Source: a virus
Taxonomy: Duplodnaviria > Heunggongvirae > Uroviricota > Caudoviricetes
Reading direction: 5' to 3' (one strand)
Virus record (IMG/VR): IMGVR_UViG_2541047944_000002
Span: 1 to 44,087 of that record
Length of the DNA stretch: 44,087 nucleotides
Shown: positions 8,991 to 39,256 of the stretch, piece by piece
Layout of the letters: the number at the start of each line of letters is the position of its first letter
Numbering within the stretch: the first letter of the stretch is position 1
Translations under genes and position numbers: made by a program
The notes under the pieces: generated by a model
Databases searched by the model: none
What the model was told of the DNA's origin: nothing
The model's input: the letters and a program-made list of their open reading frames with translations, nothing else

Positions 8991-9410
8991 TTACTCCGGT
9001 GGGGGATTATCTTTAAGCCTGCCTCTCAAATATTTTTCTACATACTCATCGATTTCTTTTAGCCGGACTTCAAATAGCTCAATCATTCGTTGTTGTTCTG
9101 AGCCCGGTAGCTGGTTAAACAACTCAAGAAGTTTTCGTTGGGATTCATTTAACCACAATTCAGAAGATTCCTGTTCTCCAAAGAGGAGCTCAGGGGGAGA
9201 TATGCCAAGTGCCTTTCCCAATACGACAGCGTCATGCACTCCAACATTTCTGCTGCCCGCCTCATAGTTACCTATACGCGATTGCGTCCATCCGCAGATT
9301 TCAGCAAGTTTTCCTTGAGATAAACCAAGCTTCTGCCTGCGCTCTTTAAGACGCATTGCAATTTTGTCATTGAGCCTACTAGCGGCAATTTTTTCGTTTT
9401 CTTTTTCCAT
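8991..9410 (-). CDS. Phage repressor, HTH XRE family (cI/RacR-like)
   Basis: HTH motif (LGLSQGKLAEICGWTQSRIGNYE); divergent from a Cro-like gene across an operator-bearing intergenic region. Confidence 0.8.
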   Translation of the reverse strand: MEKENEKIAASRLNDKIAMRLKERRQKLGLSQGKLAEICGWTQSRIGNYEAGSRNVGVHDAVVLGKALGISPPELLFGEQESSELWLNESQRKLLELFNQLPGSEQQRMIELFEVRLKEIDEYVEKYLRGRLKDNPPPE

Positions 9411-9421
9411 TGCATCCTTGT

Positions 9422-9488
9422 ATCACGAATCGTGATTTACATAAAACACAAAACAGCTTGACCATATAACACAAGGTGTGTTTAAAAT
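9422..9488. promoter_or_regulatory. Immunity-region operators and rightward early promoter
   Basis: 15-bp perfect palindrome atcacgaatcgtgat (9422..9436); second palindrome aacacaa-g-gtgtgtt (9468..9482) overlapping a TTGACC (9458..9463) / TAAAAT promoter. Confidence 0.5.
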
Positions 9489-9506
9489 TGTCATCGGAGG
9501 TTTTCA

Positions 9507-9749
9507 ATGAACAAAATTTCAACATATCGAAAACAGCTTGGGTTGTCTCAAAGACAACTCGCTGTTCAGTTAGGGTGGATACAAAGCCGACTGGCAAATT
9601 ACGAAGCAAATTTTCGTACCCCAGGACTAGAGGAGTGCAGAAAAATTGTTTCTACCCTTAATCGGCTTGGCGCTCATTGTGGACTTGACGATGTATTCCC
9701 CCCAGACGGTAAGCATAGCGAAAACAGCATAGGAGCGGTTGATTCATGA
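9507..9749 (+). CDS. Cro-like HTH regulator (YdaS-like)
   Basis: HTH motif (LGLSQRQLAVQLGWIQSRLANYE); GGAGG RBS; divergent from repressor. Confidence 0.7.
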   Translation: MNKISTYRKQLGLSQRQLAVQLGWIQSRLANYEANFRTPGLEECRKIVSTLNRLGAHCGLDDVFPPDGKHSENSIGAVDS

Positions 9750-10168
9750 AAATCAGGCATGAGCACATCGAATCAGTGCTGTTAGCCCTGGCAGCCGAAA
9801 AAGGGCAGGCGTGGGTCGCTAACGCAATTACTGAAGAATATCTCCGCCAGGGGGGAGGTGAATTGTCTCTGACACCAGGCAAGGACTGGAACAATCAGCA
9901 GAATATCTATCACCGTTGGTTGAAAGGTGAAACGAAAGCGCAAAGGGAAAAAATTCAGAAACTGATCCCTGCGGTTCTGGCAATTCTTCCGCGCGAGCTG
10001 CGTCACCGACTCTGCATCTTCGATACCCTGGAACGCCGTGCATTACTGGCGGCGCAGGAAGCGTTGAGTACGGCAATTGATGCGCATGATGATGCAGTCC
10101 AGGCCGTTTACCGGAAAGCACATTTCAGCGGTGGTGGGTCGCCCGGCGATTCTGTCGTAGTGCATTGA
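9746..10168 (+). CDS. YdaT-like protein (cII-position regulator / putative toxin family)
   Basis: 140-aa ORF translationally coupled to the Cro-like gene (ATGA overlap); recalled similarity to Rac YdaT. Confidence 0.55.
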   Translation: MKIRHEHIESVLLALAAEKGQAWVANAITEEYLRQGGGELSLTPGKDWNNQQNIYHRWLKGETKAQREKIQKLIPAVLAILPRELRHRLCIFDTLERRALLAAQEALSTAIDAHDDAVQAVYRKAHFSGGGSPGDSVVVH

Positions 10169-10245
10169 TTGAAATTAATCGTGCCGGATTGTTTTGTTCG
10201 GTATCAGTTAAATGTAACGCTGTGAGCGTTACAAGGTGAAAACAA

Positions 10246-11034
10246 ATGGCTTCAAACTGGATAAAGCTCGAGGTTATTACGCCGGATAAGCCGGAAATAT
10301 TCAGGCTTGCTGAGATTCTGAATATTGATCCAGATGCCGCATTAGGGAAGGTTATTCGCTTCTGGGCATGGGCGGATCAACAAATGATAGACGGTAATGC
10401 AGATTGTAACGCTCGCGGCGTTACAAAAAGTGCAATAGACCGCATCACTTTTATGGCTGGTTTTGCTGATGCGTTAATTCAGGTTGGATGGCTGGTCGAA
10501 AATGACGGTGGGCTTTCTCTACCTAACTTTGAACGTCATAACGGAAAAAGCTCTAAAAAACGGGCGGTTACAAACGAGCGAGTTACAAAAATACGCGAAC
10601 TGAAACGAAAAGGTAACGCTGGCAGCGTTACACAAACGGATCAAAAAGCGTTACCAGAGGAAGAGGAAGAGGAAGATATAAATACTGATCTCCCCCTAAA
10701 TCCCCCTCGCCAAAAACGAGCGTCTAAAAAATTCGAGCCGGAGGCTATCGAGCTGCCTGACTGGTTGCCGGAAACACTCTGGCATGAGTGGGTTAAGTTC
10801 AGGCAGGCATTGCGAAAACCGATTCGAACGGAGCAGGGCGCTAACGGGGCGATACGGGAGCTGGAAAAATTCCGTCAGCAGGGTTTTACACCTGAGCAGG
10901 TGATTCGACACAGCATCGCCAATGAATACCAGGGCCTGTTCGCGCCGAAAGGTGTTCGGCCTGAGACGTTGCTCCGACAGGTTAACACTGTCTCGTTGCC
11001 GGACAGTGCGATCCCGCCAGGCTTCAGGGGGTAA
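10246..11034 (+). CDS. Replication initiator, lambda O-like / DUF1376 (YdaU-like)
   Basis: Position upstream of the DnaC-like loader; contains internal iteron repeats (see repeat feature). Confidence 0.6.
   Translation: MASNWIKLEVITPDKPEIFRLAEILNIDPDAALGKVIRFWAWADQQMIDGNADCNARGVTKSAIDRITFMAGFADALIQVGWLVENDGGLSLPNFERHNGKSSKKRAVTNERVTKIRELKRKGNAGSVTQTDQKALPEEEEEEDINTDLPLNPPRQKRASKKFEPEAIELPDWLPETLWHEWVKFRQALRKPIRTEQGANGAIRELEKFRQQGFTPEQVIRHSIANEYQGLFAPKGVRPETLLRQVNTVSLPDSAIPPGFRG
10405..10634. repeat. Putative replication origin iterons (GTAACGC-N5-GCGTTAC dyads and GTTACAAA repeats)
   Basis: tgtaacgctcgcggcgttaca (10405..10425), gttacaaa x2 (10567..10591), gtaacgctggcagcgttaca (10613..10632), plus one upstream copy at 10211..10231; followed by a GAA-rich then AT-rich stretch. 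Confidence 0.55.
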
Positions 11035-11040
11035 CGGACC

Positions 11041-11787
11041 ATGAAAAATATTGCGACAGGCGGCGTTCTGGAACGCATCCGCCGACTGACCCCGCCACAT
11101 GTAACCGCCCCATTCAGAACGGTAGCGGAGTGGCGCGAGTGGCAACTTGCTGAAGGCCAGAAACGTTGTGAGGAGATCAACCGTCAGAATCGTCAGTTGC
11201 GGGTGGAAAAAATTCTGAATCGTTCAGGCATCCAGCCGTTGCACCGTAAATGCTCATTTGCGAATTACCAGGTGCAGAACGACGGCCAGCGATACGCGTT
11301 AAGCCAGGCGAAATCCATCGCCGATGAACTGATGACCGGGTGTACAAATTTTGCGTTCAGCGGAAAACCTGGTACCGGGAAGAATCACTTAGCGGCAGCT
11401 ATCGGGAATCGCCTGCTGAAAGACGGTCAGACAGTGATTGTGGTTACCGTGGCTGATGTTATGAGCGCCCTGCACGCCAGCTATGACGACGGGCAGTCAG
11501 GCGAAAAATTTTTGCGGGAGCTGTGCGAAGTGGATCTGCTGGTTCTTGATGAAATTGGCATTCAGCGCGAGACGAAAAACGAGCAGGTGGTGCTGCACCA
11601 GATTGTTGATCGCCGGACAGCGTCGATGCGCAGCGTGGGGATGCTGACAAACCTGAACTATGAGGCCATGAAAACATTGCTCGGCGAGCGGATTATGGAT
11701 CGCATGACCATGAACGGCGGGCGATGGGTGAATTTTAACTGGGAGAGCTGGCGTCCGAATGTCGTCCAGCCAGGAATTGCGAAGTGA
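11041..11787 (+). CDS. DnaC-like helicase loader / IstB-like AAA+ ATPase (YdaV-like)
   Basis: Walker A ([15 protein letters not shown]) and Walker B (DLLVLDEIG) motifs; follows the initiator gene. Confidence 0.8.
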
Positions 11788-11809
11788 TTTTTACCGGGAG
11801 GAAATTTTA

Positions 11810-12571
11810 ATGGAGACTGTTTTTGACGCACTGAAAGCGATGGGAAAAGCCACGTCGGTAGAGCTGGCTGCGCGACTTGATATCAGTCGTGAAGAAGTAC
11901 TGAACGAGCTGTGGGAACTGAAAAAGGCTGGCTTCGTTGATAAAAGCGTATACACCTGGCGTGTGGCTGATAACAACGTTCAGCAGGAACAGCCAGCGCC
12001 AGAAGAACAGCCGGAAGAAACCACCACGGCGACAGTAGCGAAAATCTCAGAGTGCGATTTAACCGCGACGATTGAACAACGCGGACCACAAACGGCGGAT
12101 GAACTGGCTACGCTGTTCGGTACAACATCCCGCAAAGTGGCTTCAACGCTGGCAATGGCAATCAGCAAAGGTCGTCTGATTCGCGTAAATCAGGGCGGTA
12201 AATTTCGTTACTGCATACCGGGCGATAATTTACCAGCAGAGCCGAAAGCTGCATCGGTAGCGGAAACTGATGGTAAAGCCTTTCCTCAGCCTGCATGTGT
12301 TGCGTTACCAGTACAGGAGGCTGCAACACAGGAAGATATTAAAACAGAAACTGTGGCGGACATTGTGCAGTCGCTGCCATCGTTCACCGAAACGCGAGCG
12401 GATGACCTGATTTTACCATCGCTGCATATGGCAAACCGCGAACTGCGTCGGGCGAAAAGTCATGTCCAGAAGTGGGCGCGAGTCTGCGCCGCGCTGCGGG
12501 AGCTGAACAAGCACCGGGATATTGTTCGACAGATTACTGATTCTTCCCGCCGTGTTGTATCGGAAAAGTGA
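11810..12571 (+). CDS. Hypothetical protein with winged-helix-like repeats
   Basis: ORF from internal Met with GGGAGG RBS ([13 protein letters not shown]...); two related segments ([26 protein letters not shown] / [27 protein letters not shown]). Confidence 0.5.
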
Positions 12572-38057: not shown

Positions 38058-39256
38058 TGGCTCTGAACCTTGATTCTCTCGGTTTATCTGCAAAGGTAAC
38101 CGCGGAGGGGATCAGTGCGCCTGATTATCAGACGATACTCAGCACCCTGATTAGCTATTTTCAGCAGATTTATGGTAGTGATGCCTACCTCGAACCGGAC
38201 AGTAAAGACGGTCAGATGGTGGCTCTGATGGCGCTGGCGATTCATGATGCCAATAATATGGCGATAACTGTCTACAACTGTTTTTCACCAGCAACCGGCT
38301 ATGGGGCCGCACTGACCAGTAACGTGAAAATAAATGGTATTTCACGTAAAGGCGCGACGAATTCTACGGTTGATTTGCTTCTTACAGGAACTGCCGGAAC
38401 AACCATCATTAATGGCAGCGTGAAAGACAGTAATAATGTGATATGGCGTTTGCCTGCTTCAGTGGTGGTCGGCGTGGATGGTACAGTGATGGTGACCGCA
38501 ACATGTTCCGTCAGTGGTGCAGTGGCGGCGCTGGCTGGAACTATCACTGAAATTAATACGCCAACCCGTGGCTGGGTTTCGGTAACCAATCCTGCTGTAG
38601 CTACTGTAGGCACTCCAGCAGAAACTGATGCGGAGTTACGTATCCGCCAGTCGCAAAGTGTTGCGTTGCCATCAATAACCCCATTTGAAGCACTGGATGG
38701 TGCTGTTTCTAATGTTACCGGTGTAACCCGCCACAAACTCTATGAAAACGATACTGGTTCGGAGGACGGTAACGGGTTACCGCCACACTCTGTTGCTGTA
38801 ATTGTGGATGGCGGTGATGTGACGGATATTGCTCAGGCTATCAGAGGGAATAAAGGCCAGGGGACAGCCACTCACGGTACAACATCCGTTATGGTTCCGG
38901 ATAAATACGGCAATCCCCATGTAATCAAGTTCTCGCGTTCCAGTGATGTACCTGTTTATGCCCGGATCAAATTAAAAGTTTTTACGGGTTATACCTCACA
39001 GATAGGGCAGCAGATCCAGCAGGCTATTTCCGACTATATCAATAGTCTGACGATTGGTGATTCGGTCCTTTTAAGTCGCATTTACTCACCGGCGAATCTT
39101 GGCGTGGTGAGTGGCGGGAATGCACGCTATTACGATATTCAGGAACTGACGATTGGGAAATCCCCGGGGGCTTTGTCGTCATCAAACATTGATATCAGAT
39201 ACAACGAATCTGCGTCCTGTACCCCGGAAAATATCGTTATAACGGTGGAGTCATGA
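38057..39256 (+). CDS. Baseplate J-like protein (Mu gp47-like)
   Basis: 399-aa ORF in canonical order. Confidence 0.6.
   Translation: MALNLDSLGLSAKVTAEGISAPDYQTILSTLISYFQQIYGSDAYLEPDSKDGQMVALMALAIHDANNMAITVYNCFSPATGYGAALTSNVKINGISRKGATNSTVDLLLTGTAGTTIINGSVKDSNNVIWRLPASVVVGVDGTVMVTATCSVSGAVAALAGTITEINTPTRGWVSVTNPAVATVGTPAETDAELRIRQSQSVALPSITPFEALDGAVSNVTGVTRHKLYENDTGSEDGNGLPPHSVAVIVDGGDVTDIAQAIRGNKGQGTATHGTTSVMVPDKYGNPHVIKFSRSSDVPVYARIKLKVFTGYTSQIGQQIQQAISDYINSLTIGDSVLLSRIYSPANLGVVSGGNARYYDIQELTIGKSPGALSSSNIDIRYNESASCTPENIVITVES

Follow-up and report, generated by a model that had tools for sequence, protein, structure and literature searches.

A probable replication origin embedded in the initiator gene of a Rac-like prophage

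Replication origins that lie within the gene for their own initiator are textbook knowledge for bacteriophage lambda. Here we describe a probable further case in a 44,087-base stretch of Caudoviricetes DNA (IMG/VR record IMGVR_UViG_2541047944_000002, positions 1 to 44,087; hereafter the window), which encodes a 262-residue replication initiator within an early gene module resembling that of the Escherichia coli K-12 Rac prophage. We propose, with a probability that we put at roughly 0.7, that positions 10214-10708 are the replication origin of this Rac-like prophage, embedded in the coding sequence of its own initiator. In our best reading, this origin is like that of lambda in its logic and different from it in its architecture. 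The elements on which the proposal is built (three exact palindromes, additional half-sites and an adjoining purine tract) are present far beyond chance, show nucleotide-level conservation that does not depend on the protein, and co-vary with the N-terminal domain (N-domain) of the initiator.

Results

Palindromes and half-sites in and before the initiator gene

The dyad GTAACGC-N5-GCGTTAC occurs in three exact copies in the window, one upstream of the initiator gene (UP) and two within it (S1 and S2; Table 1). A search of the whole window permitting up to two mismatches returned no additional copy. Dinucleotide-preserving shuffles give an expectation of 0.06 copies, and none of 100 shuffles contained three or more. 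Shorter forms of the motif are concentrated in the same place: seven of the 15 occurrences of the 7-mer GCGTTAC in the window (4.3 expected) fall within 10214-10654, where nine GTTAC or GTAAC pentamers (window mean, 1.08 per 460 bp) make up the densest patch in the window. A weaker second cluster of these pentamers, at 6 per 460 bp and without a full dyad, lies in late genes at 38300-38900.

UP ends 14 nt 5' of the initiator ATG (10246) and 1 nt 5' of its AAGGTGA ribosome-binding site, and a degenerate additional left arm, GTAATGC, is found near S1 (10394-10400). The full dyads are spaced 192 and 207 bp apart over a total span of 418 bp, and an array-like layout is confined to 10565-10655. Here, two degenerate direct half-sites precede S2 and an exact half-site follows it; in the enteric relatives L143, L122, L132 and L012, the second of the degenerate copies (GAGTTAC, equivalent to 10580-10586) is replaced by a perfect GCGTTAC.

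A first-pass annotation of this DNA had described repeats at this location, one just upstream of the gene and the others inside it, followed by GAA-rich and AT-rich sequence. The excess of exact dyads over expectation and the nearby half-sites bear out the presence of the repeats, their reported placement agrees with that of UP before the ATG and of S1 and S2 within the gene, and the sequence reported to follow them corresponds to a 21-nt purine run (10656-10676) and the TATAAATACTGAT that succeeds it. Its span of 250 bp holds only from S1 through the last half-site (10406-10654), and the full dyads form no tight tandem array; in place of a four-iteron layout, the region contains two or three widely spaced palindromes plus half-sites.

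We also considered the dyads as transcription terminators and rejected this reading, as no plus-strand dyad has a following T-run and only S2 on the minus strand scores terminator-like. Read on that strand, S2 together with CTTTTCGTTT could stop antisense transcription into the part of the gene encoding the initiator N-domain.

A half-site joined to a purine tract and an AT-rich patch

The exact half-site downstream of S2, GCGTTACC, abuts a polypurine tract that is in turn followed by an AT-rich patch and a C-rich segment (Table 1), within a region (10520-10720) where the plus strand is strongly A-rich. The purine run is widespread in the family. Over the 80 nt after S2, the longest run has a median of 21 nt, compared with a background mean of 5.9 at the same loci, and in 43 of 47 loci it is reached by at most 3% of same-locus control windows. 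The AT content 20-60 nt after S2 is 0.11-0.19 above the locus average (mean of the 47 loci). The consensus of our alignment A2 reads GTAACGCTGnnAGCGTTACA, then 4-16 nt, then GCGTTACC(T)AGAGAAGAGAAGAGAAGAGAAGA, with the half-site next to the tract kept in nearly all homologues. The tract is built from a GAGAA pentamer in most lineages and from GAGGAA in enterics. Additional arms and half-sites stand just 5' of the tract in enteric relatives, and some viral contigs carry 3 to 5 arms within 60 nt.

The peptide encoded by this segment is acidic in the window (ALPEEEEEED) and of mixed charge elsewhere (ALPREEKRRE), indicating that it is the purine-only DNA that is kept and not a property of the protein. 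A coding strand made only of purines is free of stop codons in every sense frame, and repeats of 5 nt give the same cyclic peptide whichever frame is read, which explains how the tract can lie within a gene.

Several further observations concern this segment. A 43-bp stretch of the window (10642-10684), covering the half-site, the purine tract and the start of the AT-rich patch, is 93% identical in the phages vB_EcoP_ZX5, HEMP4, Phi05_2388 B and Phi05_1387 B, which otherwise have no nucleotide similarity to the region and whose initiators have an N-domain 69.5% identical to that encoded here. The stretch would fit a conserved origin core or a recombination joint. A C5-TAAAT-C5-like element, coding for PLNPP, follows the AT patch both in the window (10690-10708) and in K-12 ydaU (L001 1909-1930), and a loose form of it, two C-runs 3-5 nt apart, occurs in Pseudohongiella, Coralloluteibacterium, PAN70 and epsilon15; this element could be either an origin part or a protein motif. 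Finally, one IMG/VR contig (L118) carries a deletion from mid-S2 to past the purine tract, and another (L138) shows complete divergence just after S2 (~+370 to +450 from the ATG). These may be prophages that have lost the origin core, and deletions such as that of L118 may leave a prophage unable to replicate.

Table 1. Elements of the proposed origin, and genes and sites around it, by position in the window
Feature	Position	Strand	Basis and remarks
Upstream dyad UP	10214..10232	.	GTAACGC-tgtga-GCGTTAC, exact match; in ydaT-initiator intergenic space
Intragenic dyad S1	10406..10424	.	GTAACGC-tcgcg-GCGTTAC, exact match; codes C54-T60
Two degenerate direct half-sites	10565..10586	+	CGGTTAC 10565-10571, GAGTTAC 10580-10586
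Intragenic dyad S2	10613..10631	.	GTAACGC-tggca-GCGTTAC, exact match; codes G123-T129, start of disordered linker
Half-site GCGTTACC	10648..10655	+	Exact GCGTTAC 10648-10654, then C; abuts purine tract; codes A135-L136-P137
Polypurine tract AGAGGAAGAGGAAGAGGAAGA	10656..10676	+ (coding, non-template)	Uninterrupted 21 nt; proposed unwinding or loading element; codes E138 to D144
AT-rich patch TATAAATACTGAT	10677-10689	.	Sequence; directly 3' of purine tract
C-rich CTCCCCCTAAATCCCCCTC	10690-10708	.	Sequence; 3' of AT-rich patch
Replication initiator gene, 262 residues	10246..11034	+	phrog_2509 'replication initiation protein', E=1.5e-89
YdaV, DnaC-like helicase loader, presumed partner of initiator	11041..11787	+	IstB_IS21 5e-20; phrog_50 'DnaC-like helicase loader' 1.8e-85; NF009043 8e-154, above cut-off
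racR-like repressor	8991-9410	-	Pfam HTH_3/YdaT_toxin and phrog_163 matches in immunity block
ydaS/cro-like	9507-9749	+	Immunity/early-control block, 8991..10168
ydaT/cII-like	9746-10168	+	Immunity/early-control block, 8991..10168
Promoter-like site	9488-9517		One weak consensus match in promoter scan

Conservation of the sites at the nucleotide level

To follow the sites beyond the window we used 64 loci (one genome per species), the best 80 of at least 519 IMG/VR viral contigs, and cultured phages. Our site tables took the best consensus match per positional window and thus lean toward the motif; the codon alignment and the S1 pairing test described below are free of this bias. Homologues that are only 35-55% identical keep both intragenic pairs of 7+7-nt arms at fixed places, with a 5-nt spacer that varies freely. 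Of 51 homologues examined, 48 retain S1 between +136 and +160 from the ATG, and 47 retain S2 between +334 and +412. The taxa that keep the dyads include Enterobacterales, Planctomycetota (Stieleria, Novipirellula, Roseiconus, Pirellulaceae), Phycisphaerales, Verrucomicrobiota, Burkholderiales, Xanthomonadales, Pseudomonadales, Ignavibacteriae and Thermoanaerobaculia. UP is the least conserved copy: enteric relatives (L007, L008, L012, L013, L122, L125, L132, L143) have a counterpart between -32 and -76 relative to the ATG, a few Verrucomicrobiota have it in part, and most other lineages are without one.

In a codon alignment of 50 homologues with less than 80% amino-acid identity, the third codon positions of the arms hardly vary (0.88 for the T of GGT, 0.98 for the C of AAC, 0.94 for the C of xGC and 0.84 for the T of GTT), compared with typical values of 0.3-0.6 elsewhere and of 0.30-0.46 at four other invariant glycines. 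S1 and S2 are often separated by a distance that is no multiple of three, and, depending on the clade, S2 is read in all three frames, encoding xNAxxVT in 35 loci, VTxxAL in seven and SRxxRD in five. Pairing between the arms of S1, assessed in columns taken from the protein alignment and picked without reference to the motif, is preserved in 90.6% of cells; changes on both sides are frequent at one pair alone, position 3/17, which is A-T in 40 sequences and C-G in six. The fixed synonymous positions, the three frames of S2 and the non-coding UP copy imply a constraint at the nucleotide level, and these comparisons point to selection acting on the nucleic acid rather than on the encoded protein.

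Helical phasing of S1 and S2 was examined as a further line of evidence and discarded: the spacing clusters at 204-221 bp with a mean resultant length of 0.40, over a narrow range and among related sequences.

Repeats and N-domain change together

In a clade drawn from Rhodanobacteraceae, Paraburkholderia and Pseudomonadaceae (L034, L053, L060, L062, L063), S1 and S2 both read GTCACGC-N5-GCGTGAC, and the half-site beside the purine tract is GCGTGACC. The change is non-synonymous in the left arm (Asn to His) and synonymous in the right (GTT to GTG). The protein of a Rhodospirillaceae metagenome-assembled genome (L032) groups with the GTAAC clade, yet its S1 is GTCACGC..GCGTGAC, which may represent a second independent GTCAC event. 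Residues that could account for the specificity of the GTCAC clade were sought, and the candidates were dropped; they are clade-wide substitutions only, too confounded with phylogeny to interpret.

More distant relatives carry altogether different repeats. Salmonella phage epsilon15 (L149), whose initiator homologue has an N-domain 32% identical to that of the window, is without GTAACGC dyads and has two sets of GTCCGC-N5-GTCCGC-N7-GCGGAC-N5-GCGGA(C/T), at 1555-1600 and 1834-1905. The second set abuts the same CAGAGAAGAGAAGAGAAGAGAAGATATTAAACCCC sequence, with the same (GAGAA)n tract, GATATTAAA and C-runs. The N-domain of K-12 YdaU belongs to DUF1376 (2.7e-26) and is unrelated to that of the window protein, which matches no Pfam family. 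Mid-gene, at +352 to +458 from the ATG and thus in the same relative position as the repeats of the window, K-12 ydaU (L001) contains five copies of rTGTTCAA and one inverted copy, TGTTTGAACAT; the last four copies are spaced 33, 33 and 12 nt start to start (L001 1750-1930). An A-rich tract follows, and then GATCCCCCCCCTAAATCCCCCCC, of the GATC-C5-8-TAAAT-C5-7 type. We regard this repeat region as a likely candidate for the oriJ core. DNA similarity between the window and K-12 starts at ~10777, and similarity to a second YdaU type starts at ~10673, just past the purine tract.

The regulators encoded upstream vary between lineages, and the N-domain is the only constant partner of the repeats, which makes it the sole constant candidate for a protein that binds them. 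That the repeats and the N-domain travel and change together is a pattern that fits a protein with its cognate site.

Domain organization of the initiator

The phrog_2509 match of the initiator is full-length, aligning residues 1-262 with profile positions 1-277 of 277. The protein is laid out as an N-domain (residues 1 to ~122), a disordered linker (~123-165) and a DnaT-like C-terminal domain (~170-262). It has no Pfam match even at E up to 5, Phage_rep_O included, and in a BLASTP comparison no similarity to lambda O (E=1.5). The designation "O-like" in the first-pass annotation is thus apt with respect to position and logic and finds no counterpart in detectable protein similarity.

The C-terminal 124 residues are 81% identical to K-12 YdaU (E=4e-73), and residues ~170-262 align with the C-domain of E. 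coli DnaT (2ru8, E=3.6e-5; 9zbt, E=1.4e-4). The protein scores far below the cut-off of the NCBIfam DnaT equivalog (16.2 bits vs 201); relatives such as TL-2011b carry the DnaT Pfam domain PF17948. A protein search with the C-domain returned near-identical fragments only, so that no deep profile could be built.

An AlphaFold2 model is confident over residues 10-100 of the N-domain except for a poor loop at residues 50-56 (predicted local distance difference test [pLDDT] <50). It continues with a long basic helix (102-123), a segment with pLDDT <50 (125-163) and a helical C-domain. The residues encoded by S1 (54-60) overlap the low-confidence loop. S2, the half-site and the purine tract encode residues 123-144, in the linker modeled as disordered; with the degenerate half-sites included, the coding range is 107-144. 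When the N-domain model was compared with the Protein Data Bank (PDB) by Foldseek, the best E value was 0.86, some of the weak matches being winged-helix regulators, for example of the MarR family. A profile of the N-domain gave no match among PDB sequences, and no similarity to Rep winged-helix proteins was found. We make no claim of a winged-helix fold for the modeled N-domain, because Foldseek gave no match below E=0.86 and the PDB profile search gave none at all.

The purine tract in other initiator families

A scan of IMG/VR for ACC-N-AGAGAAGAGAAGAGAAG returned at least 120 viral contigs. Among the 120 matches listed, this N-domain is encoded no more than 700 nt upstream in 103, and in 82 the 8-mer just before the tract is GCGTTACC. 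Several of the other 17 matches listed are complete genes with unrelated N-terminal parts. They fall into PHROG 26426, 16167, 3729, 2447 and 1408, annotated with replication or replication initiation, and 28809, whose function is not annotated. In the contigs L159, L188, L198, L236, L201, L210 and L250, putative initiators of other PHROG families have direct-repeat arrays of their own directly 5' of the ACC-(N)-AGAGAAGAGAAG tract. The clearest, of three or four copies spaced by 10-11 nt, are CCGTACGAA three times at 10-nt spacing (L198), GCGTCACGCGA three times at 11-nt spacing (L201) and TGTAACGCCA four times (L210); sets of GTCCGC/GCGGAC also occur. A variable, family-specific repeat array combined with a constant purine tract recurs across initiator families.

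Gene neighborhood and distribution of the module

From 8991 to 12571, the genes are ordered as racR-like, ydaS/cro-like, ydaT/cII-like, initiator, ydaV and DUF1627 ydaW, which is the order found in K-12 Rac. Rightward transcription from the promoter-like site at 9488-9517, a candidate promoter, would cross the proposed origin. This DNA matches phages vB_EcoS-666R9, 673R7 and 613R10 at 95.5% identity and the record 'Escherichia phage Rac' at 93.4%, and E. coli PEC399 is 100% identical to it over 10100-11100. Of 5,426 complete E. coli genomes, 679 contain a full-length relative, and the initiator family also occurs in cultured phages of Escherichia, Enterobacter, Klebsiella, Xanthomonas, Xylella, Pseudomonas, Ralstonia and Vibrio. 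As a separate observation, a 667-bp segment of the Actinobacillus pleuropneumoniae phage vB_Apl-pPE4 (PP818812) is 95.8% identical to the ydaS/ydaT region (9507-10168), an unexpected host.

At seven of ten distant loci, the gene directly 3' of the initiator homologue encodes a helicase or a loader; at the other three it matches no family. The product is a DnaB-type helicase in Novipirellula, Pseudohongiella and Coralloluteibacterium, an IstB/DnaC-type ATPase in a Phycisphaerales metagenome-assembled genome and Pusillimonas, and a lambda-P-type loader in Pseudomonas nitroreducens and Alloalcanivorax. In PAN70, the homologue is followed by DnaC and then DnaB.

Discussion

The comparative evidence supports the suggestion of the first-pass annotation that a probable origin lies within the initiator gene, as it does in lambda. 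Six features argue for this reading: selection at the nucleotide level, concerted change of the repeats, their exchange as a unit with the N-domain, their position at the linker, the purine/AT tract, and the helicase or loader gene downstream. We infer from them that the initiator is the binder, that opening takes place at the purine/AT tract, that the DnaT-like domain has a part in this process, and that the region is active as an origin.

In the mechanism that we envision, dimers of the N-domain would bind the three palindromes (core TAACG/CGTTA), and more subunits would bind the direct half-sites at 10565-10655. The resulting nucleoprotein complex would stand directly against the 21-nt purine tract and the AT patch, where the duplex would open. 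The DnaT-like C-domain may then hold single-stranded DNA and recruit host DnaB by way of the DnaC-like YdaV. UP and S1, each ~200 bp from its neighbor, are probably auxiliary and could serve in looping, wrapping or expression feedback. More speculatively, early rightward transcription may aid opening, as its RNA would correspond to the purine-rich strand and could form an R-loop. Hybrids of r(purine) with d(pyrimidine) are unusually stable. Ori-lambda is transcriptionally activated, and DnaT-dependent initiation occurs at R-loops in E. coli; an R-loop step at the proposed origin would echo both.

Several points weigh against the assignment of an origin to this region. The full dyads lie ~200 bp apart and not in a tight array, and palindromes of the 7-N5-7 form are typical of operators as well. 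With no more than ~57% A+T, the purine tract is not a classic AT-rich unwinding element. Fold assignment of the N-domain by Foldseek gave no E value below 0.8. The covariation in the GTCAC clade may reflect no more than one or two evolutionary events, and in some Verrucomicrobiota (L029, L039-L042, L055) the sites are degenerate or missing and there is no purine tract. Data on oriJ would not be directly transferable, because K-12 Rac has a different N-domain and different repeats. We also discounted the GC-skew minimum at ~9-10 kb as evidence for an origin; it is confounded, coinciding with the switch from leftward to rightward genes.

An alternative that we consider unlikely is that the palindromes are operators only, at which the initiator or another regulator limits expression of the initiator and ydaV, as a roadblock or autorepressor, with the origin located elsewhere. 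Palindromes of this form suit dimeric regulators, UP lies just 5' of the ribosome-binding site, and the ~200-bp distances between sites agree with such a role; moreover, plasmid Rep proteins autorepress by means of inverted repeats. However, the promoter scan found no promoter-like site near any dyad, and the universally conserved copies, S1 and S2, are the intragenic ones, UP being the least conserved. Repression also provides no role for a half-site fused to a purine/AT tract, an arrangement that is kept across phyla and is common to other initiator families. An operator function is in any case compatible with an origin function. We see far less scope for the dyads as hairpins in the initiator mRNA with a role in controlling its translation, stability or processing. 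Their predicted folding energies of -11, -15.9 and -10.9 kcal/mol (z-scores -2.6 to -3.8), the extent of S1 pairing noted above and the compensatory A-U to C-G change would accord with hairpins. This account leaves unexplained why the stem sequence itself, beyond its pairing, is identical in all three copies and across phyla, why arm positions 1 and 7 change mostly without compensation, why an unpaired half-site co-varies with the dyads, and why direct, non-palindromic arrays occupy this place in other lineages. No Rfam match was found at the dyads, the only hit in 9000-12000 being a chance-level tmRNA elsewhere, and the spacer pair T..A vs T..G does not tell the RNA and DNA readings apart.

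Clustered repeats with a cognate protein are also a description of parS or pac, and the sites might on that ground belong to partition (as a centromere-like element), packaging or recombination within the replication module. We give this a very slim chance: the sites always fall within a gene of the initiator family, the next gene, wherever it could be identified, is one for a helicase or loader, no partition or terminase gene adjoins the initiator, and the anatomy mirrors that of ori-lambda. To the idea that the repeats simply reflect a conserved protein motif (GNAxxVT, ALPEEE), or chance, we attach next to no credence. These peptides do correspond to conserved columns of the protein alignment, but the synonymous positions are fixed, S2 occurs in three frames coding unrelated peptides, and UP is non-coding. 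The tract peptide, EEEEEED here, is REEKRRE elsewhere, with only the purine composition kept, and chance predicts 0.06 dyads. The exact dyads, the fixed synonymous positions and the three S2 frames together led us to exclude this explanation.

Like ori-lambda, the proposed origin lies within the gene of its initiator, at the linker that joins an origin-specific N-domain to a loader-engaging C-domain. Also alike are binding sites with dyad symmetry, exchange of the N-domain and repeats as a unit between relatives, a purine-asymmetric AT-rich tract 3' of the sites (18 purines on the coding strand in lambda, 21 here), a loader gene immediately downstream (as P is to O), and early rightward transcription through the region. 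The two differ in that lambda has four annotated tandem 18-bp iterons within 85 bp (L153 435-519), whereas the window has three 19-bp palindromes 192 and 207 bp apart and three half-sites; furthermore, the loader here is of the DnaC type and not P, the C-domain is DnaT-like, and the protein family is a different one. With ydaU-ydaV of K-12 Rac, the module has in common the gene order, the YdaU C-domain, and mid-gene repeats followed by an A-rich tract and GATC-Cn-TAAAT-Cn; it is set apart by the DUF1376 N-domain and rTGTTCAA repeats of K-12. The oriJ of K-12 Rac has been described as an active origin (PMC3945230).

Similarities extend to origins of other kinds. As with the Rep proteins of plasmids pPS10, F, P1 and pSC101, an inverted repeat suited to a dimer lies by the initiator gene and direct half-sites adjoin the presumed opening region, and in some relatives there are direct repeats, three or four in number, spaced 10-11 nt apart. 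Unlike in those plasmids, the sites here are within coding sequence; our searches found no similarity of the protein to Rep winged-helix proteins, and no DnaA boxes were seen, though no search aimed at them was made. At bacterial oriC, the DnaA-box and DnaA-trio constitute a basal unwinding system. By analogy, a double-strand site that abuts a short-period repeat on one strand may be represented here by the half-site followed by GAGAA, with the differences that this initiator is not AAA+ and that the period is 5 or 6 in place of 3. With E. coli DnaT, the initiator shares the alignment of its C-terminal ~90 residues with the DnaT C-domain; its N-terminal part is unrelated, and the protein is phage-encoded and predicted to be origin-specific.

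We are inclined to doubt, though we think it worth stating, a broader interpretation in which the half-site and the (GAGAA)n/(GAGGAA)n tract would form a general, previously unrecognized origin-opening module of many phage initiator families with different repeat specificities. The purine strand would in that case be a periodic single-strand track read by an oligomerizing DnaT-like (or equivalent) C-domain, the seat of an R-loop, or both, and the module would be a phage counterpart of the DnaA-box/DnaA-trio.

We found no description of this origin element in the searchable literature. The initiator family is widespread and yet has no Pfam model, and its N-domain is without a solved relative. 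For this family, the present analysis supplies a testable map of sites: a predicted binding consensus, GTAACGCT-N3-AGCGTTAC, with the variants GTCAC and, in epsilon15, GTCCGC, and a proposed conserved opening tract. Such a map could be used to annotate prophage origins, to build plasmids that depend on a phage initiator, and to explain the possible replication failure of prophages bearing deletions, such as L118. The region is also a case of overlapping codes, in which a DNA element fixes synonymous positions of its host gene and, beyond these, motifs of the encoded protein. Should the doubtful generalization to an opening module be true, the origin would dictate part of the initiator protein (GNAxxVT, ALPREEKRRE) over at least five phyla.

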